Source: Patescibacteria group bacterium
Lineage (GTDB): Bacteria; Patescibacteriota; Microgenomatia; UM-FILTER-40-11
Reading direction: 5' to 3'
NCBI GenBank assembly: GCA_035530075.1
Contig: DATKVM010000007.1
Location: 1 to 62,073 of the forward strand
Length of the DNA: 62,073 bases
Shown: positions 3,197 through 62,073 of the stretch, in pieces
How the letters are laid out: each line of letters begins with the position of its first letter
How positions within the stretch are numbered: position 1 is the first letter of the stretch
The notes under the pieces: model-generated
What the model was told of the DNA's origin: nothing
The model's database searches: none
Seen by the model: the letters and a program-made list of their open reading frames with translations, nothing else
Program-made: the position numbers and the translations under genes

Positions 3197-3223
3197 TGAA
3201 AGAAAACCATAGGTTTCCTTTCA
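3197..3223 (+). promoter_or_regulatory. 27-nt palindromic promoter-like element upstream of lemA (copy 1 of 3)
   Basis: TGAAAGAAAACC-ATA-GGTTTCCTTTCA with 12-bp arms. TTGAAA overlaps its left edge and TTTCAT its right edge. The same element lies 5' of tRNA-Glu and tRNA-Lys. Confidence 0.5.
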
Positions 3224-18564: not shown

Positions 18565-18591
18565 TTGAAGGAAACCTATGGTTTTCTTCAA
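18565..18591 (-). promoter_or_regulatory. 27-nt palindromic promoter-like element upstream of tRNA-Glu (copy 2 of 3)
   Basis: On the minus strand it reads TTGAAGAAAACC-ATA-GGTTTCCTTCAA and ends 6 nt before the mature tRNA 5' end. The flanking ~70 nt are also similar to the lemA upstream region. Confidence 0.5.
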
Positions 18592-22805: not shown

Positions 22806-23052
22806 TTTCAAAGTGGGTAAAGTAACCCATTATTTTGACAAAATCGGGGTTGCCGTTTTGGAATTAACGGGTAACCTGGCGGTTGGCGACACGATTAAGA
22901 TTTCCAGAAGCGGTGGTGATGACTTTACGATGACCGTTCAGTCAATGCAGGTTGAGCACGAACAAATTCAGGAGGCGAAAAAAGGTGACACCGTCGGTCT
23001 TAAAGTTGATCAATCGGTTAAAGAAGACGACGAAGTCTACAAAGTTTCGTAA
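22798..23052 (+). CDS. Small EF-Tu domain-2-like beta-barrel protein
   Basis: 84 aa. GKVTHYFDKIGVAVLEL...LAVGDTIKI...GDTVGLKV resembles translation-factor domain II barrels. Confidence 0.4.
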   Translation: MADFKVGKVTHYFDKIGVAVLELTGNLAVGDTIKISRSGGDDFTMTVQSMQVEHEQIQEAKKGDTVGLKVDQSVKEDDEVYKVS

Positions 23053-23053
23053 G

Positions 23054-23437
23054 ATGGAATTTGTTCTTGCTCCCGACATTGCTTCCGAATTGAAGCGGAT
23101 TATTGTTGGCTTGGATTTTCAGCATTTAAAGCCCCAGAACATCGTCGCTTTTCGCAGTTTTGGTTCCAAATCGAGAGCGGTCGCTCGGATTTGGTCACTT
23201 CCCCACATTTGGCAGCTTGCTTTAGAAAAAGAAGCCCATTATTGTGTCGAGGTAATTTCCGAGAAGTTTGACGGCCTTTCCTCTTCGGAGAAAGAGAAAG
23301 TTCTTATTCACGAGCTACTTCATATTCCCAAGAATTTTTCCGGTGCCCTTTTACCTCATCGTCACCAAAGCCAACGGATTGACCGACGAACAGTAGAGCA
23401 CTGGCACGCGAGGCTATATAATAAAAACAGCGTTTAG
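23054..23437 (+). CDS. Putative zinc metallopeptidase (HExxH)
   Basis: 127 aa from the ATG at 23054. It has the motif VLIHELLHIP. The longer track ORF (22952) overlaps the preceding gene. Confidence 0.45.
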   Translation: MEFVLAPDIASELKRIIVGLDFQHLKPQNIVAFRSFGSKSRAVARIWSLPHIWQLALEKEAHYCVEVISEKFDGLSSSEKEKVLIHELLHIPKNFSGALLPHRHQSQRIDRRTVEHWHARLYNKNSV

Positions 23438-24137: not shown

Positions 24138-25517
24138 ATGGTTATCCCGACGAAGATTTTTAGGACTTATGACATCCGGGGAATTTTTGAAGAAGATTTA
24201 ACTGAAGAGGTGGTGGCGGTAATTGGCCGGGCCATCGGCACCTATTTTATTAATCAAAATCTTAAAAGAATTATTGTTGGCCACGATAACCGGGTTTCCA
24301 GTCCTAAAATTAAGGATATTCTGATTAAAAATCTTTTAGAAACCGGTGTTGATGTCGTTGATTTGGATACCGCACTAACCCCCTTCGTTTATTTTTCCTG
24401 GCATGAGCTAGATGCGAATGCCACAATTATGATTACCGCTTCTCACAATCCGGTTAAATACAACGGTTTTAAAATTTCCCGGAACAAAAAACCGTTAGTC
24501 GGAGAAGATTACCAAGAAATTATGGGCATTTGCCAAAAAGGTCAGTTTGCCAAAGGCGAAGGCCATTTAACTCAAGTTAATCTCTGGCCGGCCTATAAAG
24601 AAGCGATCAAAAAAGCCATTCGTATTACCCGGCCACTGAAGGTGGCCGTCGATTGCGGTAACGGTACGGCTAGCCTTTTTGCCCCGGAAATCCTTCGCGA
24701 GTTAGGCAATGAAGTAGCGACAATATTTTGCGAATCGGATGGCCGTTTTCCTCATCATGACCCTTACCCTCAGAAAATCGAGCTTTACGAAGAATTAATT
24801 AAAACTCTAAAAGCCAAGAATGCCAGTCTTGGCTTGGCTTTTGATGGCGATGCCGACCGCTTAGGAGTTTACGACGAAAAGGGAAATTTTGTTGAAAATG
24901 ACCGGTTAGCGATGATCTTTGCTGAAGATATTTGCCGAAAACACCCTCATCCAAAAATTGTCATGAATGTCTCTACTTCCTTATCGGTTATTGAATATAT
25001 TCAAAAATGTGGCGGTGAAGTTATTTTGTGGAAAACTGGTTATCCTTTTATTGCGGAAAAAATGAACGAAGTAGGCGCAATATTTGGTGGAGAAATCAGT
25101 GGCCATTTCTTCTTTAAGGACCGTTATTTTGGCTACGATGATGCTCTTTACGCTGCCTGCCGAATTTTGGAAATTGTCTCATTAAGCCAGGAACCACTTT
25201 CCGCTATCGTGGCTCGCCTGCCTCGCTACTATGAAACCCGAGAAATGAGAATTGAATTATCGGAAGATCAAGATAAATTTGCCATAGCCCGGAAAGTCGC
25301 TACAGAAATTGAAACAGAATTTCCCGAAAGCCAAATGCTTGACATTGACGGCTTAAAATTTATTTTTGCTGACGGTTGGGGGTTAATTAGGCCTTCCAAT
25401 ACGGAACCGATTATTAGCGTCAGAGCGGAAGCTAAAACTCCAGAGCGGCTGACGGAAATTAAACAATTAATTCAACGCAAACTAGAAGAAAATAGTGTAT
25501 CCTTTTCTTGGGAGTAA
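24138..25517 (+). CDS. Phosphomannomutase/phosphoglucomutase family protein
   Basis: 459 aa. It has the active-site loop TASHNP, the metal site FDGDADR and a GEISGH sugar-binding loop. Confidence 0.9.
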   Translation: MVIPTKIFRTYDIRGIFEEDLTEEVVAVIGRAIGTYFINQNLKRIIVGHDNRVSSPKIKDILIKNLLETGVDVVDLDTALTPFVYFSWHELDANATIMITASHNPVKYNGFKISRNKKPLVGEDYQEIMGICQKGQFAKGEGHLTQVNLWPAYKEAIKKAIRITRPLKVAVDCGNGTASLFAPEILRELGNEVATIFCESDGRFPHHDPYPQKIELYEELIKTLKAKNASLGLAFDGDADRLGVYDEKGNFVENDRLAMIFAEDICRKHPHPKIVMNVSTSLSVIEYIQKCGGEVILWKTGYPFIAEKMNEVGAIFGGEISGHFFFKDRYFGYDDALYAACRILEIVSLSQEPLSAIVARLPRYYETREMRIELSEDQDKFAIARKVATEIETEFPESQMLDIDGLKFIFADGWGLIRPSNTEPIISVRAEAKTPERLTEIKQLIQRKLEENSVSFSWE

Positions 25518-30589: not shown

Positions 30590-31204
30590 TTAAAACCTTC
30601 TCACAATTCCGACGCATTTACCTTGAATTCGGACGCTATTAGTAAAGATAGGCGACATTTTGGAATTGGCTGGCTCCAGGCGAATCCGGGTCGCTTCGCG
30701 GAAGTAACGCTTGAGAGTGGCTAAGCCGTTTTCCAGCAAAGCGACGACAATATCCCCGTTTTTGGCTTCGTTTTGCTCTTCGATGACGACAAAATCACCA
30801 TCTAAAATCCCGTCTTCAATCATTGATTCACCTTTTACTTGTAAAACAAAGGCTCGTTTTTTGCCGGAAAGCATACCGGGAGCAACGTGGGTGGTAGCGT
30901 TGGGGTCAGTATGGGGTTCAATTGGCGTACCGGCGGCAATGAAACCCAAAATCGGCAACTCAATGCCTTTGATAATTTCTCCCAGTTTTTTGTCAACCAC
31001 TTCAATCCCCCTGACCGCCCCTTCAAATCTTTTAATCACTCCCTTTTTAACCATCGAATTAAGGTGCTCGTGAACAGTCGCCAGGGAGGAAACACCAATG
31101 GCTTCAGCAATCTGCTGCAAAGTGGGAGAATAGCCGTTTTTTTGAATGTATTGGCTAATAAAATCGAGAATCTGTTTTTGGCGCTTGTAGAGAATAACTG
31201 GCAT
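30590..31204 (-). CDS. lexA: LexA repressor
   Basis: An N-terminal wHTH (TLQQIAEAIGVSSLATVHEHL), a cleavage-site region (FIAAGTPIEP) and S24 peptidase motifs (GESM ... TLKRY). Confidence 0.9.
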   Translation of the reverse strand: MPVILYKRQKQILDFISQYIQKNGYSPTLQQIAEAIGVSSLATVHEHLNSMVKKGVIKRFEGAVRGIEVVDKKLGEIIKGIELPILGFIAAGTPIEPHTDPNATTHVAPGMLSGKKRAFVLQVKGESMIEDGILDGDFVVIEEQNEAKNGDIVVALLENGLATLKRYFREATRIRLEPANSKMSPIFTNSVRIQGKCVGIVRRF

Positions 31205-31313
31205 AGAATTAGGGTTTAGTGGTAAAGTTACTCTACGCCAAAGAAAACCCGAATGTCAAGTAGCAAGTAGTAATTGTATTAAGCCTTAGGTATCTATTAT
31301 CATAAAGACAGCA

Positions 31314-33173
31314 ATGAGAAAAGTTTTTTCTTTCTTTATCTTTATCCTTTTGGCTTTTCTTGCCTTGGTTTTTCCTTCTTTCGCCTCAGCTAAAGAATTT
31401 TCTTCCTTTTACAAAACAACTTATCGCTTTGCCAATTCCGCCGAGGCTTTTGTCACCCAAGAAGTTTCGTTAGTTAATCTAACAGCGGACTATTATGTTT
31501 CGGAATACTCTTTGAGCATCCTGGGCAGTCAAATTGACAGCATTGAGGCCTTTGATAATGTGGGGCCGGTTAAAACTCAGACCCAGGTGAAGGATGAAAC
31601 GACGATTATTACCCTCTATTTTAACGAAAAAGTGGTCGGGAAGGGAAAAATGCTTTCTTTTATTCTCAAATACCGTTGCGGCGGTTTGGCTAAAAAAGAA
31701 GGTAATCTCTGGCAAATTAGTATTCCTAAATTGGCCAAGGATGATGAAATTGATGAGTACGAGCTTTCCCTAAGAATTCCTCTCGAGTTCGGCAAAGTCG
31801 CCTTCGCCAATCCGACTCCCCGCCGCGAAGAAATTGTCGACCGTTTTTATCAACTTCAATTTGAGAAAGATGACCTGGTTAATTATGGAGTTTGGGTAAC
31901 CGTCGGCCAGTACCAAACTTTTGATTTTGTTATTAATTACGAATTAACCAATTCTTCTGCGACTTCAAGAGTAGAAAAAATCGCCCTCCCGCCAGATACG
32001 AACTACCAGACCCTTTATTATGAGAGCTTAGAGCCGGAACCGATTGATTTGGAGATTGACCCTGATGGTAATTGGCTGGCGGTTTACCGCTTGGGGGCAA
32101 ATGAGAAACTGGCCATTAAAGCCAAAGGAAAAGCTAATCTCTTTTTTCAATCGAAAAAAGGCCACTGGCCGGAACCGGAATTTAACGCTAATGATTATTT
32201 AACCGCTTCCAAAAACTGGCCGGCTGACCAGTCACTCATTAAAGACTTAGCCGGGAGTCTAAAGACTCCCGCCGCTATCTATCGTTACGTCGTTAACAAT
32301 TTAAACTATGATTACCAATCGATTAAAAAAGGAATGGAGCGGAAAGGAGCCTTAGGGGCGCTCAATAACCCTCAGAAATCAATCTGTACCGATTTTACCG
32401 ACCTTTTTGTTGCCCTTTGTCGGGCCGCCGGTATTCCGGCTCGAGAGTTAGCCGGATATGCCTATTCCGATAATCCGCGGTTAAAGGAGTTAGCGGCAAA
32501 GAATGACTTACTTCATTCCTGGGCGGAATATTATGACCAGCAGAAACAGGAGTGGATCATGGTTGACCCTACTTGGGAACAAACCAGTGGTGGATTGGAC
32601 TTTTTTAATAAATTTGATATGGCGCATTTTGTCTTTGTCATTCATGGCCGCAGCGACACTTTGCCACTTTCTCCCGGCGCTTACAAAGATAATGAGAGTT
32701 CAGAAAAGCAGGTGTTTGTCGAGTTAAGCAGTGAGGAAGTCATTAAAAATCCCAAGGCTTTTTCTATCACGAGTGTTCGGCCACAGCTCCTCTTTTCCCT
32801 CAAAAATAATTCGCTTGAAGTCGAGATGAAGAATGAAAGTGGTTTTAGTCTTAACAATGAGATTTTCCGTTTAGAGGGTGAGCCAAAAGTTGAGCCTAAT
32901 GAATGGTTTTTCAAACAAATTCCCCCTTTTTCTCGCTTTAGAATTGCTTTCAACCTAAAGCCAATGGAACAAATTAGAGATTATCAGTTGAAATTTACTC
33001 TTAAGACGGGCGAAGAAGCGAGGGAATTAACCCTAACGGTTAACTCTTTAATTTTGAGGGCCGGCATTATCAGCGGAGTTTTACTAACAGTGGCGTTAGT
33101 GCTCTTACTATGGAGCTTGAAAAAAAATCGTTGCTCTCCGTTAGAAGAAAATGCTAATCTTAAAGAAGAATGA
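31314..33173 (+). CDS. Transglutaminase-like domain membrane protein
   Basis: 619 aa with a signal peptide and a C-terminal TM. The transglutaminase core is CTDFTDLFVALCRAAGIPAR...HSWAEYY...DPT. Confidence 0.75.
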   Translation: MRKVFSFFIFILLAFLALVFPSFASAKEFSSFYKTTYRFANSAEAFVTQEVSLVNLTADYYVSEYSLSILGSQIDSIEAFDNVGPVKTQTQVKDETTIITLYFNEKVVGKGKMLSFILKYRCGGLAKKEGNLWQISIPKLAKDDEIDEYELSLRIPLEFGKVAFANPTPRREEIVDRFYQLQFEKDDLVNYGVWVTVGQYQTFDFVINYELTNSSATSRVEKIALPPDTNYQTLYYESLEPEPIDLEIDPDGNWLAVYRLGANEKLAIKAKGKANLFFQSKKGHWPEPEFNANDYLTASKNWPADQSLIKDLAGSLKTPAAIYRYVVNNLNYDYQSIKKGMERKGALGALNNPQKSICTDFTDLFVALCRAAGIPARELAGYAYSDNPRLKELAAKNDLLHSWAEYYDQQKQEWIMVDPTWEQTSGGLDFFNKFDMAHFVFVIHGRSDTLPLSPGAYKDNESSEKQVFVELSSEEVIKNPKAFSITSVRPQLLFSLKNNSLEVEMKNESGFSLNNEIFRLEGEPKVEPNEWFFKQIPPFSRFRIAFNLKPMEQIRDYQLKFTLKTGEEARELTLTVNSLILRAGIISGVLLTVALVLLLWSLKKNRCSPLEENANLKEE

Positions 33174-33577
33174 AAGGTTTTTTAAGGAATATTTTTTTTA
33201 ACTTTTTGACTCTCTTCTTGATTGCTAAGCTAATTGGGGCGATTTCGTTCAAAGAAAATTATTTAGTTTTGTTTTGGTCAGCCTTTTTTTTAACGCTCTT
33301 AAATCTCTTGGTCAAACCACTTTTAAACCTTCTTCTTATGCCAATTAACCTGCTTACTTTGGGAGCTTTTCGCTGGGTCGTTAATGTTTTAGTTTTACTC
33401 TTAGTCGTCATTTTTGTCACTGACTTTAAAATTGTCGGTTTTTCTTTTCCGGGTGCCAGTTTCGTTGGTTTTGTGATTCCTGCCATTAGCTTGACTTTCT
33501 TTTGGGCTTTAATTTTGGTATCATTCCTAATTGAAGTGATTTCCAATTTTTTGAATTGGGTTTTGGGGGCAAAGTAA
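33170..33577 (+). CDS. Small 4-TM membrane protein (DUF360/holin-4-like)
   Basis: 135 aa, entirely hydrophobic with about 4 helices. The family call is from memory. The start overlaps the upstream stop (ATGA). Confidence 0.35.
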   Translation: MKGFLRNIFFNFLTLFLIAKLIGAISFKENYLVLFWSAFFLTLLNLLVKPLLNLLLMPINLLTLGAFRWVVNVLVLLLVVIFVTDFKIVGFSFPGASFVGFVIPAISLTFFWALILVSFLIEVISNFLNWVLGAK

Positions 33578-51976: not shown

Positions 51977-53008
51977 TTAACCATTTCTTTCTTGCCATAA
52001 ATTAGCTAATCGCTCCACCTCCGGCTCATATTCTGGTAGCAATGCCTCCTCTTCATCTGGACAGCCAGACCCGTCACGAAGCCGAACCCAAAAGGGCATT
52101 TCCATATCCGCTTCTATCCGCTCATCCTCATCATATTCATTCATCTCTTTGATTTCTCCCCATTTTCTTTCAACTTCACGAAATCCGTCCCTTGAAATAT
52201 CTCCCAGCATTCTCCACCTATCACCAGAATACCAAGCATAAAAATTTACCCGCCCGCTATTGGTTAAAAAGGCGTATGGTTCTTTCCGGCCATCCTTTCT
52301 GGCCACAAACTGAATTCTGCTATCGCCAAACTGCGCCATTCTTTCTTCCATCCGCAAAAAGTCTGCCAGCAAACAGTCGGTGCCGCCTTTTTCTGGAGTT
52401 CCTAGATTTTCTAATTTCTCTCTCTCGCTTAACTCTTCCACTCTTGACCATGCTTGCCGAGCCAGGTCACTATTATATTCATACACTCGCCAATACTTAA
52501 ATCGCTGTTCATTAATCATTGGGTATATCGCTGGGGCCTCGCCACTATTAACCGCGGTAAATACCGTGTGCCAGCCCATTTCAATTCCCTTGCTGTTTAT
52601 TTTATTGGCCCACTCCATTAAGTTATCAAATACCCCCATAAATCCTTCTCCCCTCAATTGCCTTTGAATATTTCTATCAACCGCATCTATAGGTAAAGCG
52701 ATATCATCAATTAAACCTTCCCATCTTTCCAGTCTTTCATCCGTCAGTAGCAAACCGTTAGTGTGCAAACTAACATAAACACCACCATCTTTTAATATTC
52801 TTAATACTTCTTCCAAATTCCTGGCTAGAGTGGGTTCACCGCCGCCCAAAATTACTTCTCTGACGCCATTTTCAACCAAAACCCTGGCTAATTGAGCATC
52901 TCTTTCCGGGGAGACCTCGTTTCCCGGTAGAGGACCGAAGCAATAGGCGCATCTTTCTAGATTACAATCTTCTCTTAGAAACCAATGGATGCGCTCAAGG
53001 TTTGGCAT
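51977..53008 (-). CDS. Radical SAM enzyme with non-canonical CX4CX2C motif and an unassigned acidic C-terminal domain
   Basis: 343 aa. DCNLERCAYCF, GGGEPTL and HTNG motifs are present. TAGAAT (53022-53017) lies 8 nt before the ATG. Confidence 0.75.
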   Translation of the reverse strand: MPNLERIHWFLREDCNLERCAYCFGPLPGNEVSPERDAQLARVLVENGVREVILGGGEPTLARNLEEVLRILKDGGVYVSLHTNGLLLTDERLERWEGLIDDIALPIDAVDRNIQRQLRGEGFMGVFDNLMEWANKINSKGIEMGWHTVFTAVNSGEAPAIYPMINEQRFKYWRVYEYNSDLARQAWSRVEELSEREKLENLGTPEKGGTDCLLADFLRMEERMAQFGDSRIQFVARKDGRKEPYAFLTNSGRVNFYAWYSGDRWRMLGDISRDGFREVERKWGEIKEMNEYDEDERIEADMEMPFWVRLRDGSGCPDEEEALLPEYEPEVERLANLWQERNG

Positions 53009-54666: not shown

Positions 54667-54735
54667 TCTCTCCGCCTTGAGTAATTTGGGCCTAAAAGAA
54701 TAGTTTATGCCTAAAAGAAGCCTTTTGCAAGATTA

Positions 54736-55293: not shown

Positions 55294-55881
55294 TTATTCC
55301 ATCAGACGAAACCAGTCTCTCACAGCAAGACGAAGTCGTAAAATCTCATCTTCTGCCAATAAGCAACAATGAGCAATGGGGCCTCGTAGTCTGTTAAGAA
55401 CAACCATAACATGTTCTACCGCTTTTACACTTGAGAAAGTTGCCCCAAAAACGTTCCAATTCGCCTTGATAATTTCTCCTAATTCACCAAAGGTACAAAA
55501 ATCGATTGGATCATCGGATCGAGGGGTCACTCCGGAATCTATTTCTTCTCTTTGCCTTTTTTCGGTTGCATTGCGAATGTCTCTTGGAATCCGCTGACTT
55601 TTCCACCAATCGACCCCGCTTCCGGTAACTAAAGTGTCTGTTATAAGACGCCGCACCGTTTTTTCAAGCGAATAAAAGACCTCATAATGAGGAGCCATTG
55701 CAGCCGCCTCGTTTCTTATGTCTTGCTCGATTTGAGGGTAATATTCCTTATCGGCTTCGATAATTTTAGTGTTCTCCCTGCCCAGATTTACTCCGTATCT
55801 TTGCTCGACCTGATCCAAATTGTGTCCAATAAGCTGACTCGTCATCGCAAAGTGGTTAAGAGCAGCTTTTAAGTGGTTCAT
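55294..55881 (-). CDS. HEPN-domain protein, Swt1-like (predicted RNase effector)
   Basis: 195 aa. It has a C-terminal LNRLRGPIAHCCLL (Rx4-6H) motif, and DFCTFGELGEIIKANWNVF upstream of it resembles the Swt1-like HEPN family. Confidence 0.65.
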   Translation of the reverse strand: MNHLKAALNHFAMTSQLIGHNLDQVEQRYGVNLGRENTKIIEADKEYYPQIEQDIRNEAAAMAPHYEVFYSLEKTVRRLITDTLVTGSGVDWWKSQRIPRDIRNATEKRQREEIDSGVTPRSDDPIDFCTFGELGEIIKANWNVFGATFSSVKAVEHVMVVLNRLRGPIAHCCLLAEDEILRLRLAVRDWFRLME

Positions 55882-56582
55882 TATTCTAAGAGGTGCTCCC
55901 GAAGACTCTTAAAGATTGCATCAAAAACAGCCACATCAGAGGTTGCTGGTAAATTCAAATTAATGACATAGCCCAATTTCAGATCAACCGGCGCTTTAGG
56001 AGTTTCGCTTGGTTTACTAGGTTCGATCCTTCGATTGACTTCGGCCGGAGGGGAAGTCTCTTTTTCTAAAGCAGTATCTTCGTCAAACACAGCAAAACTT
56101 CGTAATGCTTTAAAAGACCCCGATATCGCTTTTGTGGTTCGTGATTTGGAATCCAACCCTGTGGCTTGTATAATTACTCCCACCAACTCCCTATCGTTTA
56201 AGTCATGTACATGTTCGTTGATTTCATATAAAGGCGCATACCCTTTCTTCAAGGCTCCTGCCGCTGCTTTTCCACGGAGCGTGGGATTTCTAAACTCTTT
56301 ATACAACTCTGTAGGCGTTCCATCGCCATTTAAGAAACCTGTCCTTTTTAAAAAAGGGATGACTGGCCGGGGTGAACCTCCTTTGAGGTTAAGTTTTGTT
56401 GACAAGAAATCTTGTGTAAACCTTTCCGGAGTGGATGCAGCTTGAATGCGGTCAAGAGCTTTGGTGATTGCCCCACAAGAGATGACATAAGGGACGGGGA
56501 TAGAAGTGGGGTGCTTATCTTTAGGTGTTGCGCCTTTATTAGCCTCAGTGTTTTCTTCTGTGTTTATTTGTTCATCTGCCAT
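55881..56582 (-). CDS. DUF5343-domain protein
   Basis: 233 aa. PVPYVISCGAITKALDRIQAASTPERFTQDFL...FLKRTGFLNGDGTPTELYKEF matches my memory of DUF5343. Its stop overlaps the HEPN start by 1 nt (TAATG). Confidence 0.55.
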   Translation of the reverse strand: MADEQINTEENTEANKGATPKDKHPTSIPVPYVISCGAITKALDRIQAASTPERFTQDFLSTKLNLKGGSPRPVIPFLKRTGFLNGDGTPTELYKEFRNPTLRGKAAAGALKKGYAPLYEINEHVHDLNDRELVGVIIQATGLDSKSRTTKAISGSFKALRSFAVFDEDTALEKETSPPAEVNRRIEPSKPSETPKAPVDLKLGYVINLNLPATSDVAVFDAIFKSLREHLLE

Positions 56583-56740
56583 TTCTGTTTCATTGTATTC
56601 CCATAGTCCTCAAAAATCAATACTGCTTGGTAATATAAGTAACAAAGGACTGCTGGATATCTTTGTGTAAAGAGGGAAAAATCTATATGTCTCCTTGGGT
56701 GATGGGGAGGAGGGCGCCGGTCATGAGAAGCAAAAGATAG

Positions 56741-56776
56741 AAAGAAATCTATATTGCCTAAAGAAGTCTAATAAAG
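56741..56776 (-). repeat. Half-copy of the island spacer module (lacks the -10 half)
   Basis: The plus strand reads AAAGAAATCTATATTGCCTAAAGAAGTCTAATAAAG. It is most similar to 58864-58898 and lies immediately 3' of the 56777..57208 stop. Confidence 0.6.
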
Positions 56777-57208
56777 CTAACCGATGTTTTCATAGCGGCC
56801 GTCTTGATAGGGCGGAAAACAAACTTCATAAGCGACTAAGAAAGATTCCTTATCTGCTTCCCACTGCATCAGTTCCCCAATTTCGACGGTTACCGAAGAA
56901 GGTTCTTGCTGTTCGCCGCCGACAAGGTGAACCTCTGGCTTACCATTAAGCTTGGTTATGGTGAGCTTTCCTTTTCCGGACCTATATCCTTCAATTGTTC
57001 TGTCACCATTTAAAACTTTTTGCAAAGGAGTTTTACAACCTGGGGCAATTTTGATAATTCCCAAATCTTTTTTTGGATCTCTATCAAATGAATAAACCTT
57101 ACAATCTACACCATCGGCAACATGCATAGTTTTAACAAAAGAAACCACTTGTTCCTTTCCTTCAAAAGTAAAACTATTTATTGGTATCGAATTTTGTTCA
57201 ACGCTCAT
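56777..57208 (-). CDS. Cupin-like small protein
   Basis: 143 aa with a beta-rich pattern (...GIIKIAPGCKTP...GKGKLTI...VTVEIGELMQWEA...AYEVCFPPY) consistent with a cupin barrel. The match is weak. Confidence 0.4.
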   Translation of the reverse strand: MSVEQNSIPINSFTFEGKEQVVSFVKTMHVADGVDCKVYSFDRDPKKDLGIIKIAPGCKTPLQKVLNGDRTIEGYRSGKGKLTITKLNGKPEVHLVGGEQQEPSSVTVEIGELMQWEADKESFLVAYEVCFPPYQDGRYENIG

Positions 57209-57222
57209 ACTACAAGATTGAA

Positions 57223-57261
57223 TTTTACCACTTTCTGCTTGGGAAAGAAATCCATATTGCC
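57223..57261 (-). promoter_or_regulatory. Island spacer core, copy B
   Basis: The minus strand reads GGCAATATGGATTTCTTTCCCAAGCAGAAAGTGGTAAAA(T). TAAAAT lies 13 nt before the ATG at 57208. Confidence 0.55.
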
Positions 57262-57299
57262 AAAAGAACTAAAAAGCTAAAGGGGGGGTGGGGCATTGA

Positions 57300-57698
57300 T
57301 TATCTGACTTTAATACCTCTCCTTTTTAAGCCTTCCTCGCTTTCAAATTCGAGGTAGTTTTGGGTAAGTTCTTCACCTGCCTTTATATCCCGGGTTGCCA
57401 CTAAATAGGCGTCTTTTTGTTTGGGATCTTGGGTTAATGTGGCATTGAATGAATGATTAATAAATTTCGAATTATCAAAATCAACATGCCAGACGTTGTT
57501 TAGTTTATCCCAAAAGCCCCAATATCTAATTTCCCTTTTTTCTTTTTCGTCTAGGGAATCGAATTGTTCCTGGGTAATATTTACATCCAAAAGGGGACTG
57601 GCTGAATATACCAGTTGTCCTTTTCTTACATCTTCATCGGCAAATAATCCAATTCCGTGAAGTTTTGATTTATCGAGTTTATATTTAATATGAATCAT
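57300..57698 (-). CDS. SET-domain protein (putative lysine methyltransferase)
   Basis: 132 aa with GIGLFA, FINHSFNAT (NHS) and GEELTQNY (ELxxxY) motifs. Confidence 0.7.
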   Translation of the reverse strand: MIHIKYKLDKSKLHGIGLFADEDVRKGQLVYSASPLLDVNITQEQFDSLDEKEKREIRYWGFWDKLNNVWHVDFDNSKFINHSFNATLTQDPKQKDAYLVATRDIKAGEELTQNYLEFESEEGLKRRGIKVR

Positions 57699-57741
57699 TC
57701 ATTTGGCCGGTTTGCTACTTGCCAGGTTAAGTTAGTCTCAA

Positions 57742-57780
57742 TTTTACTACTTTCTGCTTGGGAAAGAAATCCAGGTTGCC
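57742..57780 (-). promoter_or_regulatory. Island spacer core, copy C
   Basis: The minus strand reads GGCAACCTGGATTTCTTTCCCAAGCAGAAAGTAGTAAAA(T). It lies about 42 nt upstream of the SET gene ATG. Confidence 0.55.
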
Positions 57781-57840
57781 TGCAAATAATTATCGAAGGT
57801 AATAGAAATATCTTTGTGAGATATAATATAATGGACATTA

Positions 57841-58827
57841 ATGAAATTTCGCATCATCCTTTTTATTCTGATCCCTGTCTTCATAATTATTGTTTCTGCT
57901 GTAGGATTAAGCTATTTCACCTTGAAAAAAGGAGATTCCTATTTTGATCAAGGAAATTATTCTCAAGCAGCTAAGTTTTATCAATTATCAAATATTCTCT
58001 CTCTAAGTTTAAACAAAAGAGCTAAGGTTAGAATGCAAAATTCTCTAAATGAACTACTGAAAACAGGAAATAATCCGTCTTCTTTGCAGTCATCATTAAC
58101 TATTCCTCTTAATGAAATATCTGTCATCAACAAAAGGGTGGTAAGCAAAGATTATTCAAACGGTAATAGAAGTATAACTATCAGTGCTATTGTTAAAAAC
58201 AACTCAGACATTGGTATTCCTGCCGTAAATATAAAAAGGATAACTATGTACGATGAGGATCATAAAAAAGTAGCTGAAAAAACAGAATTTGAAGATGGGT
58301 CTTTTATGATTGTTGGTCGAGGAGAAATGCCTTTTTCTCTAAGTTTTTCTGTCGAAACGCCTAAGCTGATTGAAGTAAAAGATTTTGACCTCGAACTTAA
58401 AATACCTTCTTTTAAGCCAACTAGCCGTTCTATAAGATTAAAGGCAACCAATCCTGTTCGATTATCGACTGAGACTAGTGATGTGTATCTGGAAAAAGGT
58501 AAAGTTTATAATTTCGAATATAAAACAACACTCACTAATGATACCGATAAGATTGTTGAGAATATTCGACGAGTTTCTTTCTTGAAACATAAAGGTTTTA
58601 CTTTAACAAGAATAGGAGAAGCTTGTTGTACACAGGTAAGTTTTAGAAACGACGGTGGAAATTCTGGAGGATTGAATCTAAACAAAGTTACCTACGACTA
58701 TTCTTTAAATCCAGGTGAAAGCAGAGATTACATCTTTAAAATTTTAACCGATCCTTTATTGATTGATAGTTTAATAAATCCATCTGAAATTGAGCTTGTC
58801 ACTTACTTCATTGGTTCAACGAAATAA
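57841..58827 (+). CDS. Membrane-anchored hypothetical protein
   Basis: 328 aa with an N-terminal TM, a short TPR-like stretch (GDSYFDQGNYSQAAKFYQLS) and then a beta-rich region. It is the only sizeable plus-strand gene in the island and has a TATAAT upstream. Confidence 0.5.
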   Translation: MKFRIILFILIPVFIIIVSAVGLSYFTLKKGDSYFDQGNYSQAAKFYQLSNILSLSLNKRAKVRMQNSLNELLKTGNNPSSLQSSLTIPLNEISVINKRVVSKDYSNGNRSITISAIVKNNSDIGIPAVNIKRITMYDEDHKKVAEKTEFEDGSFMIVGRGEMPFSLSFSVETPKLIEVKDFDLELKIPSFKPTSRSIRLKATNPVRLSTETSDVYLEKGKVYNFEYKTTLTNDTDKIVENIRRVSFLKHKGFTLTRIGEACCTQVSFRNDGGNSGGLNLNKVTYDYSLNPGESRDYIFKILTDPLLIDSLINPSEIELVTYFIGSTK

Positions 58828-58863
58828 TTATTTGTTAGATTCGATTTGAAAAAATAGCCTCTC

Positions 58864-58898
58864 GAAAGCAAATCTATGTTGCCTTGAGAAGTCTAATA
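58864..58898 (-). repeat. Half-copy of the island spacer module (lacks the -10 half)
   Basis: The plus strand reads GAAAGCAAATCTATGTTGCCTTGAGAAGTCTAATA. It lies 3' of the 58920.. gene, where the next gene is convergent. Confidence 0.6.
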
Positions 58899-58919
58899 TG
58901 GCCAACCAATAAGGGGTTA

Positions 58920-59642
58920 TTAGATAGGATTAGGTAAAATTCCGGCTTTCCCTCTTTCGCCGCTAGAAAGACTTTCGTAGTACGCCCAGAGTCTAGGGGC
59001 TTTTTCTCTAAGAGCAGCAATTACTTCGCGATACATTGTCCGACAATTTTCTTCTTTAAGTATTCCAGGTTCCAAAGTATGTCCTAAAATTTCTTTAGGG
59101 TCAACCCCAGATTCATAAGCAGCTTCTGAAAGCCTGGCGAGAAGTTCGATAGGGTCTTTTGACACTTTTGCAACCTTTTCTACGGTATCCATTGCTTGAA
59201 AATATCTTTCGGCAGTCCGACCATCTCCTCTTCCTGCTATTTCAATAAAAACTCTTGGAAGAGCATATCCCCATAAGGTTGACAGAGGAGACATTTCTGA
59301 AAAATGAGATTCTGGAACGGTTCCTGGTTCAAAATAGCCAACTGGTTCATCTGGAAGGCGAACGGTGGAAGAAACGAGCAAATTATAAAGCTCAGGATTT
59401 ACCCTACTCGCAGTTTCGCAAATTATCGATTTAAAGACAAAATCACATTCGTCATATCTTCTTCTTGTCCATTCAAGGCCATATTGACCTGAAACCTTAC
59501 CAGGCATTGGGCAAGATTGACGCCAAGCCGAGACTCTCAAGCGGTCTTCAGAAGACAAATCCATAATAGTCGGGTCATCACCCATAAAGGTACCTCTTCC
59601 AAATGATTCAGGTGTGAGAAATTTGTCAAGTTCTTTTCCCAT
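58920..59642 (-). CDS. Hypothetical protein
   Basis: The ORF is open to the TTG at 59669. I prefer the ATG at 59642 because TATAAT (59655-59650) sits 7 nt upstream. The ATG at 59651 is an alternative. No family was recognised. Confidence 0.45.
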   Translation of the reverse strand: MGKELDKFLTPESFGRGTFMGDDPTIMDLSSEDRLRVSAWRQSCPMPGKVSGQYGLEWTRRRYDECDFVFKSIICETASRVNPELYNLLVSSTVRLPDEPVGYFEPGTVPESHFSEMSPLSTLWGYALPRVFIEIAGRGDGRTAERYFQAMDTVEKVAKVSKDPIELLARLSEAAYESGVDPKEILGHTLEPGILKEENCRTMYREVIAALREKAPRLWAYYESLSSGERGKAGILPNPI

Positions 59643-59693
59643 AAACTGCATTATATCATTTGAATTCAAAATTAAGGCCGACTAAGCTAGTGT

Positions 59694-59729
59694 TCTTTTT
59701 TCTGCTTGGGAATGAAATCTATGCTATCG
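59694..59729 (-). promoter_or_regulatory. Island spacer core, copy E (degenerate)
   Basis: The minus strand reads CGATAGCATAGATTTCATTCCCAAGCAGAAAAAAAGAA. The GTAGTAAAAT part is replaced. Confidence 0.4.
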
Positions 59730-59831
59730 AAAATCAGGAAGCTAAAAGAGAAAAGAGATTAAGAAGAGGAAAAACAAAGAAAAAATACAGCTGAAATGTT
59801 GAACGAGCCAGTCTAGGGCTTGCCTGCAAAC

Positions 59832-60008
59832 TCACAAAACAGTATTAGCTAAAATTAAGATCAGGATCCAGATCGCAATTCCTATGATCCCATAAGTTTT
59901 CCAGTGTTCACGAGAAGGTTTTTCACTACCTAAAAGCCAGGCGGGGATATGTGAAGCATTTAAAAACAAGGCACCTAAGAGGAAAAGCACAAAAAACAAT
60001 ATTTTCAT
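59832..60008 (-). CDS. Small 2-TM membrane protein (58 aa), below the ORF-track cutoff
   Basis: MKILFFVLFLLGALFLNASHIPAWLLGSEKPSREHWKTYGIIGIAIWILILILANTVL. It fills an otherwise empty slot between two spacer cores. Confidence 0.45.
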   Translation of the reverse strand: MKILFFVLFLLGALFLNASHIPAWLLGSEKPSREHWKTYGIIGIAIWILILILANTVL

Positions 60009-60078
60009 TCGATTTTTTCTTTCTTGTCGTTTAGTATCCTATTTAAATTCTATGTCTATCAAAATAAAAAGTCAAAAA

Positions 60079-60117
60079 TTTTACTACTTTCTGCTTGGGA
60101 AAGAAATCTATGTTGCC
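60079..60117 (-). promoter_or_regulatory. Island spacer core, copy F
   Basis: The minus strand reads GGCAACATAGATTTCTTTCCCAAGCAGAAAGTAGTAAAA(T). Confidence 0.55.
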
Positions 60118-60144
60118 TAAAAGTGCTTGAAGTAATTAAAAAGC

Positions 60145-61092
60145 TTAGGCCACGAGGTTAACTGGCTTGCCTTGGGCGAGGGAAACGAGGCTCTCGGTCC
60201 AGATTTCGGAAGCTTTTTCCAAAGCCTCTTTGGTATACCAGGCAAAAGGCTTTAAACCAATGGCCGTTTCAACTTGTGAAAGTGGACCGGAGGCCAAATC
60301 GTCCCCCTCATAAGCATAAGAGGTAACTTTACCGCTTTTTAAAGCCTCTGCCATGGCTTTCTCATCAACAAGTTCTCGGGTAGCCAGATTAACCACGATT
60401 ACTCCATTTTTCATTTTGTTAAGCTGTTCCACCGAAATCAGATTTTCCGTTTCCTTGTTGTGGGCAACATTAATGGAAATTGCATCGGCCTGGGATAAAA
60501 CCTCATCCAAGGACTTTTCCTCCACGAAACCAAGATTCTTCGGCGTCCGGCTAAAGCCAATTACTTTCATCCCAATAGCATTTCCCAACTCGGCCACTCT
60601 CGCCCCAATATGGCCTAAACCAATCATTCCCAAAGTTTTACCTTTGAGTTCAAAGCCCATTTCCGAAACATATTTAGCCTGCTGGGTTCTCCGGTCGGAA
60701 ATCAAAATCTTTTTGGCCAGACAAACCAGCAATCCCAAAACATGTTCGGCCACCGATTCAGTGGAGTAATAAGGAACGTTGGTAACAAGAAGACCTCTTT
60801 TTCGACAATAATCCAAATCAATCCAACTAAAAGAGGTTGACGCTAAAGCCACTCCTTTTAAGTTGGGAAGACTTTCCAGGAGTTTGGTTAAATTACCGGC
60901 CATTGCCTTCTCAAACCCGCCAAGATTATCGGGGTCGGCTCCCAGAATTTCTGAACCCGCCGCCAGCTTAATTAAATCTTCAAGAGGAAATTCGTCTCGA
61001 GAGTTGGTGTATACAACTCCTCCCAACTGAGAAAGCTTTTTTTGTTGTTCTGGGGTAAATCCTGACTGGGGCGAAAGAATAGTTATTTTCAT
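60145..61092 (-). CDS. D-isomer-specific 2-hydroxyacid dehydrogenase family protein
   Basis: 315 aa. It has the NAD-binding site GMIGLGHIGARVAE and the typical catalytic/NAD domain order. Confidence 0.8.
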   Translation of the reverse strand: MKITILSPQSGFTPEQQKKLSQLGGVVYTNSRDEFPLEDLIKLAAGSEILGADPDNLGGFEKAMAGNLTKLLESLPNLKGVALASTSFSWIDLDYCRKRGLLVTNVPYYSTESVAEHVLGLLVCLAKKILISDRRTQQAKYVSEMGFELKGKTLGMIGLGHIGARVAELGNAIGMKVIGFSRTPKNLGFVEEKSLDEVLSQADAISINVAHNKETENLISVEQLNKMKNGVIVVNLATRELVDEKAMAEALKSGKVTSYAYEGDDLASGPLSQVETAIGLKPFAWYTKEALEKASEIWTESLVSLAQGKPVNLVA

Positions 61093-61099
61093 TGCATTA

Positions 61100-61139
61100 A
61101 TTCTACTACTTTCTGCCTAGGAAAGAAATCTATGTCAGC
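61100..61139 (-). promoter_or_regulatory. Island spacer core, copy G
   Basis: The minus strand reads GCTGACATAGATTTCTTTCCTAGGCAGAAAGTAGTAGAAT. TAGAAT lies 7 nt before the ATG at 61092. Confidence 0.55.
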
Positions 61140-61164
61140 TTGAAAGCTAAAAGGGGAAGTGGGG

Positions 61165-61737
61165 TTATTTGGAGGTTAAGAATTCTACTAATTCAGGAAA
61201 TTGCTCTGTTTTCATATCTTTTAAAGTAAAATGGCCTTTGTTTTCAAACTCCTGGGTTTGGATATTTTTATCCGCCGCCAAGATTTGCTCGACACTGGTT
61301 AAGATATATTGCTCGTCATCTTTAGAATAAAAAACACATAACCCGTCGGTTTGTTTACTTAAATTTCTCTTTATCTCAAAATTAAAAAAGTCGGATTTAA
61401 CCTCATTGTGTTTGGGGTCCATAAAGGGAGCAACTAAGGCGACCTTTCCCACCTTGATATTATTCTCCGTTAACCACCTGACCAGAAATCCTGCGCCGCA
61501 ACTATGTCCTATTAGATATGTATCTTCATCAATTTTAAATTGTTCAAAAACTTTTAACCATTTTTTATAAACAGGTTCATATGGCTCAGGTAGTTCCGGC
61601 GTTTGGGCCAGAATTCCTTTTAAAACCAATTGTCTTTGGACCCAAGGCAACCAATGTTTATTCGACTGAGAAGGACTTTTAGGGTTGAAGTACTCCTTTT
61701 TTGAAGGCATCCCATGAAGAATAATTGCGGTTTTCAT
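61165..61737 (-). CDS. Alpha/beta hydrolase, YdeN/RBBP9-like serine hydrolase
   Basis: 190 aa. It has an N-terminal ILHG, the nucleophile elbow GHSCG, and a size typical of the YdeN family. Confidence 0.65.
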   Translation of the reverse strand: MKTAIILHGMPSKKEYFNPKSPSQSNKHWLPWVQRQLVLKGILAQTPELPEPYEPVYKKWLKVFEQFKIDEDTYLIGHSCGAGFLVRWLTENNIKVGKVALVAPFMDPKHNEVKSDFFNFEIKRNLSKQTDGLCVFYSKDDEQYILTSVEQILAADKNIQTQEFENKGHFTLKDMKTEQFPELVEFLTSK

Positions 61738-61748
61738 TTTGTGCCTTC

Positions 61749-61788
61749 ATTCTACTACCTTCTGCTTGGGAAAGAAATCTAGGTTGAC
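61749..61788 (-). promoter_or_regulatory. Island spacer core, copy H
   Basis: The minus strand reads GTCAACCTAGATTTCTTTCCCAAGCAGAAGGTAGTAGAAT. TAGAAT lies 11 nt before the ATG at 61737. Confidence 0.55.
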
Positions 61789-61836
61789 TTAAAGTCTGGG
61801 AGCTAAAGAGGGTAGGGAATTATTGGAGAAGATAGT

Positions 61837-62073
61837 TCAGGCTTGAATGATTCTTTCCTCACCCAAAACTCTCACCTTGTTATCTTCTACTAAGACTTCT
61901 TCACCGTTTTTCAAGAGATAAAGTTTCTTTCCCTGGTAATGCTTTTTGATGTATTCCAACATACTTTCTTCATAATGAGGGTAAATTTCAAAATCAACTA
62001 ACCCTAAACCTGGAATGACACTGGCTCCCGGTTCACCTTCCCCGAAATACCATTCGGTAGTATTTAGTTTATT
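61837..62073 (-). CDS. C-terminal part of a peptidase S51 (dipeptidase E)-like protein (5' end beyond the window)
   Basis: Open minus-strand frame to the window end with a TGA at 61839-61837. ...GLGLVDFEIYPHYEESM... resembles S51/class-I glutamine amidotransferase-like proteins. Confidence 0.45.
   Translation of the reverse strand, partial: NKLNTTEWYFGEGEPGASVIPGLGLVDFEIYPHYEESMLEYIKKHYQGKKLYLLKNGEEVLVEDNKVRVLGEERIIQA

Follow-up and report, generated by a model that had tools for sequence, protein, structure and literature searches.

Described systems with reiterated intergenic sequences

Putative mobile promoters (Matus-Garcia, Nijveen & van Passel 2012; commentary PMC3575422) are highly similar non-coding sequences upstream of non-homologous genes, common to related taxa and without a match to known mobile elements or Rfam families. 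The intergenic module described here, whose host is a small clade of uncultured Patescibacteria (CPR) bacteria, shares each of these features, and its copies reach the identity of at least about 80% over at least about 50 nt upstream of non-homologous genes by which mobile promoters are recognized. In contrast to them, its copies stand close together, all pointing the same way, at nearly every gene junction of one hypervariable island. The repeat also takes in the -10 box and extends as far as the start codon; the screen in the literature was restricted to positions -150 to -50 (PMC3575422). As far as sequence can tell, the module would best be read as a further member of this kind.

The locus also resembles chromosomal integron arrays (attC, e.g. 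the Vibrio VCRs) in its short, unrelated, one-orientation genes, its species-homogeneous repeat, its content that varies between relatives and its inclusion of a toxin/defence-type pair. A preliminary description of this DNA had pointed to an integron-like layout with a different sequence logic. Neither the 72-nt consensus (both strands) nor four native spacers showed an attC-like fold (z +0.2 to +1.5), with only 5-bp local stems forming. The attC boxes R' (GTTRRRY) and R'' (RYYYAAC) are absent from the consensus, which has no GTT on the coding strand; the sole R'-box candidate, GTTGCCT on the other strand, has GCC in place of RRR, and few parts of the core are less conserved than the GGCAAC box. 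No integrase was found by Pfam among the window ORFs of at least 100 aa (the window being the whole 62,073-nt stretch analysed), nor among the Pfam matches in the ~8 kb contig extension beyond position 62073, where the preliminary description had suggested looking for a recombinase or regulator. No attI was found either. Integron cassettes, moreover, are mostly promoterless, with the repeat 3' of the ORF, whereas the best-conserved part of the module lies 5' of the ORF and would carry a promoter.

Two further systems bear comparison. The pdif modules of Acinetobacter plasmids (XerC/D) are likewise one- to few-gene modules with short arm-spacer-arm bounds and no nearby recombinase gene; unlike pdif sites, which are 11-6-11, dif-like and alternating in orientation, the core forms direct repeats of roughly 10-7-10. 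The core is not known to resemble the dif consensus sequences. Mycobacteriophage stoperators and start-associated sequences are reiterated phage promoter/operator repeats, as are the intergenic repeats of halovirus HF2 in the published account of that virus (PMC8707807). These repeats are like the module in that one conserved short sequence occupies short gaps, in a single orientation, near stop and start codons; they are unlike it in that the present island holds no phage structural or replication genes and the module has no match in the IMG/VR, INPHARED and PLSDB collections.

A conserved intergenic repeat in a variable island

The expression and exchange of accessory genes are little understood in Patescibacteria, whose genomes are ~1 Mb with few regulators. 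In the window, the units of the low-GC, tRNA-adjacent island extend over 55294-62073 on the minus strand, with a GC content of 0.37-0.40 vs ~0.43 elsewhere, and the start of the array adjoins an 882-aa protein, a 67-aa gene and a tRNA cluster. The island comprises, in order, a partial S51 peptidase gene, a Ser_hydrolase (PF06821) gene, a 2-Hacid_dh gene, a 58-aa ORF, a 249-aa gene, a 328-aa gene, a SET gene, a cupin-like gene and a DUF5343 + HEPN pair that corresponds to PADLOC PDC-M34. Pfam matches identify SET, 2-Hacid_dh, Ser_hydrolase, Peptidase_S51, DUF5343 and HEPN, while the sole basis of the 'cupin-like' label is the JGI name of a homologue. The genes downstream of the module copies are mutually unrelated. 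Two unidentified genes had been placed between modules in the preliminary description; one of them, the 328-aa gene (57841-58827), sits on the opposite strand.

A repeat search recovered all six ~42-nt core copies of the preliminary description at their positions on the minus (coding) strand. The conserved unit, earlier taken to be ~40 nt, proved to be ~85 nt, comprising a C-rich tail, an AT-rich TTTTAGCTTTTTAATTCTTTTTTAAGCT segment and the core GGCAAC-ATA-GATTTCTTTCCCAAGCAGAAAGTAGTA(G/A)AAT, with a left boundary that is ragged from copy to copy. A 21-nt core pattern allowed up to three mismatches matched exactly these six sites in the window vs 0.00 expected, and neither this pattern nor a left-half pattern found a core copy in the other ~56 kb, which consists of housekeeping genes. 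Pairs of window copies show ~78% identity over 68 nt and 81-95% over the 42-nt core.

All copies in the window lie on the minus strand. After the S51 stop codon, a left part with C-rich tract and CTCTTTAGCT (61790-61836) leads into a full core (61748-61789) whose TAGAAT end is 11 nt from the ATG of the Ser_hydrolase gene (61165-61737). Directly 3' of the hydrolase stop codon, TAACCCCACTTCCCCTTTTAGCT (61141-61164) is followed by a full core (61099-61140) ending in TAGAAT 7 nt from the ATG of the 2-hydroxyacid dehydrogenase gene (60145-61092), and 3' of the dehydrogenase stop codon stand AGCTTTTTAATTACTTCAAGCACTTTTAG (60119-60144) and a consensus-identical core (60077-60118), 69 nt upstream of the 58-aa membrane-protein ORF (59832-60008), with a second sigma70-like site (60075-60047) between core and ORF. 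The next copy (59688-59729) is degenerate (69% to the reference), having kept the left arm and spacer and lost the -10 half; downstream of it, a separate TATAAT lies 7 nt before the ATG of the 249-aa gene (58920-59669). Full cores recur at 57740-57781, 38-43 nt upstream of the SET-domain gene (57300-57698), and at 57221-57262, where the TAAAAT end is 13 nt from the ATG of the cupin-like gene (56777-57208) and the left part, CCCCACCCCCCCTTTAGCTTTTTAGTTCTTTTGG (57263-57299), lies 3' of the SET stop codon. A seventh full copy just past the window end (L012 7548-7581) stands upstream of the full-length S51 peptidase gene. Several further elements of the preliminary description can be read directly in the sequence: the spacing of 7, 11 and 13 nt between -10 and ATG, the C-rich tails, the CTTTC-N7-GAAAG dyad and a TAACCCC 3' of the HEPN stop.

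Partial copies complete the series. The left-half pattern recovered both half-copies noted earlier (56739-56758 and 58864-58883). One, ending in GATTTGCTTTC (58864-58898), lies 3' of the 249-aa gene and faces the 3' end of the convergent 328-aa gene on the plus strand; the other, ending in GATTTCTTTC (56739-56776), lies directly 3' of the cupin-like stop codon. The accompanying statement that no gene follows in series fails for the latter, which is followed by DUF5343; in the relative L035 the same position holds a full core and then a different gene. The decayed copy with C-rich tract (CCCTCCTCCCCATCACCCAAGGAGACATATAGATTTTTCCC; 56676-56725) that precedes the DUF5343/HEPN pair is homologous to a full module at L044 13005-13068, and its stretch 56676-56720 is orthologous to the full core at that site. 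A tentative left-part remnant (CTTCTTTTAGGCA..CTTTTAGGCC; 54690-54725) lies upstream of ABC-transporter genes.

At least four related genomes, with a cupin-like protein of only 79-81% identity, carry the core almost without change, and different genes stand behind the same core in L032, L035, L042 and L044. The core preceding the cupin-like gene is orthologous to L044 9944-9988; about 5 of 56 nt of this module differ between window and L044, against a DNA identity of 79% for the gene. Identities between other pairs are 82.7% over 75 nt (L012 7507-7581 vs L032 2587-2660), 87% over 92 nt (L032 vs L042) and 84% over 64 nt (L042 vs window). The module is absent from the relatives L046, L047, L048, L052 and L057, whose cupin-like protein is at most 75% identical, and a metagenome scan found the core on only four contigs, all from one study. 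Unit-level differences among the related genomes are abundant, with modules at the junctions. The module is thus better conserved than the surrounding proteins while standing at almost every strain-variable junction of the island, and purifying selection probably keeps it across species.

The core as a candidate promoter/operator

From the sequence evidence we lean, by a small measure, towards a clade-specific promoter/operator module that has been reused, and not an integron. The 3' 40 bp of the ~85-bp module would constitute a complete promoter, roughly -46 to -7. Its right end, GTAGTA(G/A)AAT, would be the lineage's usual -10 type and would start leaderless or short-leader mRNAs, while the usual place of the -35 would be taken by a near-invariant imperfect dyad, GATTTCTTTC-CCAAGCA-GAAAGTAGT, centred near -24 and presumably bound by a factor, be it a repressor, a spacer-binding activator or a non-housekeeping sigma factor. 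The AT-rich and C-rich upstream part, 3' of the preceding stop, may be a UP-like element or an insulator. The module would have been reused before almost every separately transcribed gene of the island, and duplication, ordinary recombination between copies and illegitimate recombination, with no dedicated cassette recombinase, could account for its spread and for gene turnover.

Where the conserved block ends, and what follows it, supports the promoter interpretation of the preliminary description. Among 16 distinct full copies, the block is 90-100% conserved up to the last T of the -10-like hexamer and falls to background level immediately past TAGAAT. A co-directional start or ORF lies 7-69 nt downstream in 15 of the 16; for six copies the -10 end and the ATG are 7, 9, 11, 12, 13 and 13 nt apart, for the others 29-69 nt, and the start codons very near the core have no SD sequence. 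Boxes of the (A)GTAGAAT type also occur 6-11 nt before the starts of unrelated window genes (24138, 51977, 1230, 46186 and 57841) and in module-free relatives (L047 9988, L046 6703); since this -10 type recurs so close to other starts, the 3' end of the core most likely serves as a promoter typical of this lineage, from which leaderless or short-leader mRNAs would start. Among non-array genes (n = 55), 12 have such a box vs a background of 8.3%, and only 11 have an SD-like motif.

Truncated copies are consistent with this arrangement. Right halves alone still stand upstream of genes (L044 8113 and 10527). Where the -10 is missing, the copy points at a convergent gene, lacks any gene to drive or is trailed by a different -10. 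Against the promoter reading, a full copy at L044 11465 and a short copy at L044 12139 have no co-directional gene to drive, and a simple sigma70 scan did not call the core because it has no -35. Canonical promoters of the form TTGAAA-N16-TGnTAnnAT are present in the clade (for example TTGAAA-N16-TGCTATTAT-N7-ATG), and these, together with the zero copies in 56 kb of housekeeping genes, speak against the core being just the lineage's consensus promoter.

The proposal of a regulon under a single regulator fares less evenly. In its favour, the CTTTC-N7-GAAAG dyad holds a fixed register and a constant distance to the -10 in all full copies, the short variant being the one that lacks the right arm. 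Against it, no DNA-binding protein is encoded in the window's island and no regulator was found in island or window; LexA (30590-31204) was considered and rejected, as the lookalike in its promoter is a window-only duplication absent from three orthologous promoters. Two further observations count against the promoter/operator reading itself: ~31 nt are near-invariant, including the dyad spacer, which is stricter than in usual operators, and a one-island regulon of functionally unrelated genes is unusual. Should it hold, the module would offer a tangible lead to a regulatory site or factor specific to this lineage, and a case from nature in which promoter reuse goes together with gene turnover.

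Exchange, insertion and RNA-level readings

It seems unlikely to us that the core is a double-stranded recombination site, with arms GATTTCTTTC and TACTACTTTC around a 7-bp spacer, at which single-gene units are cut out and put in by a recombinase whose gene lies elsewhere in the genome, each unit with the right half (promoter) before the gene and the left half behind. The arm-spacer-arm geometry is that of tyrosine-recombinase core sites, but the spacer differs among copies (CTAGGCA, CCAGGAA, CCAAGAA, CCAAGCG), which would block strand exchange by such an enzyme. Several truncations do fall in or beside the spacer (after CTTTC twice, after CCCA, after CCCAA and before CAAGCA); the breakpoints are nonetheless scattered, some lying after CAGA and GTAG. 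The copies all face one way as direct repeats, each unit holding a single short gene, in an island that is low in GC and adjoins a tRNA cluster, yet there is no integrase, transposase or resolvase in the 62 kb and the ~8 kb past the window edge, nor in 13-20 kb around the L042 and L044 arrays.

Gene content is similarly two-sided. Relatives differ unit by unit, the core's left flank travels with the upstream gene (the cupin 3' flank is kept in the window, L035, L044 and an L032 remnant) and its right flank with the downstream gene (the cupin 5' flank is common to window and L044). The window's own population, however, has an identical gene order in at least four independent assemblies, and the module upstream of the cupin-like gene, orthologous in window and L044, has persisted since the two diverged. 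The cassette-style accretion zone suggested at the outset is apt as a description, given the unit-level differences with modules at junctions, but less so as a cassette mechanism, given the scattered breakpoints, the missing attC-like fold, the gene order common to the four assemblies and the absence of a recombinase from the window and flanks. We are equally doubtful that the module combines a promoter with the exchange site of an integrase-independent gene-cassette system in Patescibacteria. If it did, the 31-40 bp of cross-species identity would represent a distant recombinase's site or RecA homology arms; in the RecA variant, single-gene units from relatives would be swapped via portable homology arms. 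In either variant, captured genes would arrive ready for leaderless expression, and the whole would be a cassette system working without an integron integrase.

Improbable, too, is a ~85-nt non-autonomous miniature element (MITE, Correia or ERIC type) whose promoter faces outwards and which entered the intergenic spacers of an already existing gene cluster time and again. Promoters are found on described elements of this class (PMC3575422), and the gene arrangement of the module-free relative L046 is similar (large protein, small minus-strand gene, 2-Hacid_dh ... cupin), which suggests that the module was added to pre-existing spacers; a 142/144-aa orthologue with a promoter of its own is module-free in L012 and has the module added upstream in L044. 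The module nevertheless has no terminal inverted repeats, its ends staying unpaired in the fold, and no target-site duplications were visible in the flanks inspected. Copies are always co-directional with genes and, in the 62 kb, all lie on one strand within a single island (~6 kb) rather than dispersed, the ragged left boundary overlaps a coding 3' end in L035, and no transposase was found in the window.

Least credible is an RNA-level element, a core hairpin (AUUUCUUUC-CCAAGCA-GAAAGUAGU) serving as an intercistronic processing, stability or translation-initiation signal in a polycistronic array: although 96% of cells are pairable on the coding strand with G-U allowed, one-sided changes are all U-A to U-G or the reverse, and SD-less start codons lie very near the core, folding on either strand is energetically no better than for shuffled sequence, compensatory changes are absent (the shuffled control gives the same value as observed), Rfam holds no matching family, the short variant lacking the right arm still stands upstream of a gene (L032 482), and the abrupt end of conservation at the -10 is in keeping with a signal in DNA.

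Apart from these readings, leaderless starts appear to be common in the group, and the 40-bp core might serve there as a portable promoter in genetic tools.

The intergenic module and its distribution

A repeat search confirmed the six repeats of the preliminary description as a 42-nt unit at 57221-57262, 57740-57781, 59688-59729 (degenerate), 60077-60118, 61099-61140 and 61748-61789. A 21-nt core pattern, allowed up to three mismatches, matched exactly these six copies in the window (0.00 expected) and found no match in the other ∼56 kb, while a left-half pattern recovered the two half-copies, at 56739 and 58864. Every copy is on the strand that codes for the local genes, here the minus strand, as had been stated, and the gaps of 7, 11 and 13 nt between TA(G/A)AAT and ATG, the CTTTC-N7-GAAAG dyad (GATTTCTTTCCCAAGCAGAAAGTAGT) and the C-rich tails can be seen directly in the sequence. 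The repeat itself stands, but not its proposed length of ∼40 nt, as the aligned copies give a module of ∼85 nt. This consists of a C-rich stretch following the upstream stop codon, a middle part (TTTTAGCTTTTTAATTCTTTTTTAAGCTCATTGAG) that is deleted to varying degrees in the window copies, and the core, GGCAAC-ATA-GATTTCTTTCCCAAGCAGAAAGTAGTA(G/A)AAT. Core conservation is 90-100% in 16 distinct full copies drawn from five sources, and it falls to background right after the final T of the hexamer.

Contigs encoding the same hydrolase protein carry the sequence beyond 62073, where a seventh full core was found, 9 nt ahead of the complete S51 peptidase gene (7548-7581 in L012, the contig reaching past the window edge). 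Upstream of this copy the extension holds a 67-aa minus-strand gene, an 882-aa protein, a 142-aa gene and a tRNA gene cluster, and no further module copies. The original observation as a whole is confirmed and extended.

The module has a narrow distribution. Among genomes representing each GTDB species, the core pattern gave 10 single matches in unrelated phyla (∼9 expected by chance, by our own estimate), and a scan of JGI metagenomes limited the multi-copy or flank-matching matches to four contigs from one study, two of them the window's own locus and two (L032 and L035) other gene arrangements from related genomes. The core had 0 matches in a viral collection and none by blastn in PLSDB and INPHARED; Rfam matched only tRNAs, at gathering thresholds in the window and at E up to 1 in L012, L032 and L035. 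Close relatives found through the cupin-like protein (L042, 81% identity; L044, GCA_040961635.1, 79%) carry an almost unchanged core ahead of different genes, in three full or near-full copies and one truncated copy in L042 and in six copies in L044. The flanks of L044 are syntenic with the window (SIMPL, tRNAs, DUF3175, a proteasome-like gene and an ABC transporter), indicating that the island occupies a conserved chromosomal place with differing content. The modules ahead of the cupin-like gene in these two genomes are orthologous and differ at ∼5 of 56 nt, the gene itself being 79% identical in DNA. No trace of the module was seen in five relatives with 62-75% identity in the cupin-like protein (L046, L047, L048, L052 and L057), one of which, L046, retains a similar backbone (a large protein, a small minus-strand gene, and 2-Hacid_dh through to the cupin-like gene). 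Presence in close relatives and absence from these five make the module a narrow-clade innovation, already in place before at least three species diverged.

The core as a putative promoter

If the final T of the hexamer is placed at -7, the conserved block covers about -46 to -7, as a promoter footprint would. Elsewhere in the window, -10-like boxes of this type are found 6-11 nt ahead of start codons (TTTAGAAT-N6-ATG at 24138, GAGTAGAAT-N8-ATG at 51977, TGTGTAGGAT-N8-ATG at 1230 and TATAAT-N8-ATG at 57841). A TAnn[AT]T box whose end lies 5-12 nt ahead of the start was found in 12 of 55 non-array genes versus 8.3% of random positions, and an SD-like motif in only 11 of the 55, these counts being rough because the longest ORFs were used to define start codons; leaderless-type starts appear to be common in this genome. 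Module-less relatives have such boxes as well, ahead of the cupin-like gene in L047 (AGTAGAAT-N6-ATG, 9988) and of 2-Hacid_dh in L046 (GAGTAGAAT, 6703). Lone right halves of the core (AAAGTAGTAGAAT and CAAGCAGAAAGTAGTAAAAT) occur just ahead of genes in L044 (8113, 10527), and copies without the -10 are opposed by a convergent gene (window 58864; L042 6120) or have another -10 downstream (window 59688, with TATAAT next; L042 2340). Together, these lineage boxes, lone right halves and -10-less copies lead us to read the 3′ end of the core as an ordinary lineage-type -10, which, judging from its position, would give leaderless or short-leader mRNAs. The promoter part of the earlier interpretation thus gains support at the level of sequence.

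The rest of the core is less conventional. Its -35 position reads TTTCTT, and a canonical promoter exists in the same clade (TTGAAA-N16-TGCTATTAT-N7-ATG, L044 12515-12551), which together argue that the core is not a standard housekeeping promoter; a sigma70 consensus scan did not call it because it lacks a -35. That it is simply the consensus promoter of the lineage was ruled out by 0 copies among 56 kb of housekeeping genes and by the canonical promoters present in the clade. A sigma54-like reading of GGCAAC-N5-TTTC was rejected by inspection because of incorrect spacing, a missing GC at -12 and weak conservation of the GGCAAC box. The centre of the dyad falls at about -24. On neither strand does the module fold better than its shuffles, and an attC-like or structured-RNA reading was rejected; dyad pair counts equal those of shuffles with no compensatory change, so that covariation is uninformative. 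The simplest reading of the dyad is a putative double-stranded protein-binding site.

No regulator was found among the genes of the window's island. A recurrent 67-aa gene was rejected as a candidate, being a predicted coiled coil, as were small HTH genes present in L035 only. The latter are four tandem genes (64-97 aa; L035 47-989, minus strand of the locus) downstream of a truncated core in this related strain, one of them matching Sigma70_r4_2 (E 1.9e-7); they are absent from the window, and their products could be regulators. The 67-68-aa coiled-coil gene, which has no family match, recurs on the opposite strand within or bordering each island that carries the module (L012 6983-7186, L032 231-437, L042 2087-2290 and L044 12207-12410, all minus strand), divergent from a core copy in three of four.

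The sole match to CAAGNAGNAAGTAGTA outside the island lies in the lexA/transglutaminase divergent promoter (window 31257-31272). There the tandem sequence is a local duplication of CTACTTG seen in the window alone; three orthologous lexA promoters keep TACTTGACATTCGGGTTTTCTTTGG and not the tandem sequence, and on this lack of conservation LexA/SOS control of the module was rejected. TACTTGACATTCGGGTTTTCTTTGG, a -35 with a conserved spacer, is common to the lexA promoters of four genomes (window 31205-31270, minus strand; L049 2460-2500; L050 2060-2100; L051 2465-2500) and is a candidate LexA operator for the lineage. A Y1_Tnp (IS200/IS605-type) transposase gene is inserted near lexA in one module-less relative (L049 4618-5274, minus strand; GCA_040961665.1), with no counterpart in the window.

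Possible gene exchange and comparison with known elements

We also considered that the core mediates gene exchange as part of a cassette system. The units share one orientation with a single short gene each, repeats mark the unit boundaries, and relatives differ unit by unit: the cupin-like gene is followed by a truncated core and DUF5343/HEPN in the window, by a full core and a 147-aa gene in L035, by a split core and an EamA transporter in L044, and by a different, 111-nt element in L042. Remnants of gene ends and leaders also adjoin cores (L032 3290-3340; L035 2360-2250; L044 10460-10520). However, no recombinase was found in the window and its extension or in 13-20 kb around the L042 and L044 arrays, and attC features are absent. 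The breaks in truncated cores are scattered (CTTTC| twice, CCCA|, CCCAA|, CAGA|, GTAG|, |CAAGCA and |AAAGTAG) with no single crossover point, and the 7-bp spacer differs between copies. Moreover, a full and a short copy in L044 (11465 and 12139) have no co-directional gene downstream, and at least four independent assemblies agree in the order S51-hydrolase-2Hacid_dh-58 aa-249 aa. We therefore regard a role in gene exchange as improbable; recombination scars in a tolerant island fit better than a precise cassette machine. The proposed accretion zone is supported as a description of unit-level differences among relatives, not as a mechanism.

Among known concepts, promoter reuse ('putative mobile promoters', PMC3575422) comes closest and shares with the module the similarity between loci: sequences ahead of unrelated genes are 82-87% identical over 62-92 nt. 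Intergenic promoter repeats of phages (PMC8707807) offer an analogy, although the module's island contains nothing phage-like and the module has no match in viral, phage or plasmid collections. A chromosomal integron array resembles the island in layout only, its defining features having been looked for and not found. The single orientation and the lack of terminal inverted repeats and dispersal speak against a MITE/REP-type element.

Island genes, surroundings and other repeats

Pfam bears out the gene identities given earlier (SET, 2-Hacid_dh, Ser_hydrolase, Peptidase_S51, DUF5343 and HEPN), and homologues of the cupin-like protein and LexA are named 'Patescibacteria group bacterium' and 'Candidatus Roizmanbacteria'. 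Outside the array the window carries ordinary core-chromosome genes (DnaE, PolX, GatCAB, RuvC, LexA, PGM, PGI, PPDK, enolase, phosphoglycerate mutase and glycosyltransferases), with a GC content of ∼0.43 versus 0.37-0.40 in the array region, and no integrase or transposase was found in it. The DUF5343 and Swt1-like HEPN pair (55294-56582, minus strand) matches the PADLOC candidate defence system PDC-M34 with both proteins (E 3.5e-45 and 1.8e-37); PADLOC matches are limited to this pair, and the reading of the whole island as a defence island was rejected. A 'phage metallopeptidase' and a phage-holin-family gene lie amid housekeeping genes (22952-23437 and 33170-33577). The holin-family gene and a transglutaminase-like gene beside lexA are conserved in relatives and so are probably resident genes, not a prophage.

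Several other repeats were noted. In front of an ABC-F ATPase gene, a short variant of the core with a 5-nt deletion (CAGA|GTAAAAT) runs directly into a conserved ∼125-nt leader. The leader has no Rfam match and a fold z-score of -0.8, and orphan copies or fragments of it occur at sites with no following ABC-F gene. The variant and leader loci, orphans included, are L032 482-690, L035 2372-2250 (minus strand), and L044 12139-12175 and 10460-10520. The relatives' islands hold two more intergenic repeats (L044 7580-7690 and 9024-9134; L042 3669-3801; L044 8034-8113 and 9826-9905): a 111-nt element ahead of small genes, with copies 98% identical, and an 80-nt GGGCACC...GGTGCCC(T)n hairpin with an SD-like sequence and a mini-ORF in its loop. 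In a second repeat family, the hairpin AAGAAAACC-NTA-GGTTTYYTT immediately precedes tRNA genes, namely tRNA-Glu in the window and several tRNAs in L012, and also precedes a LemA gene (window 18568-18588 and 3200-3220; L012 2320-2340, 2793-2813 and 3009-3029), with four strand-matches in the window versus 0.13 expected.
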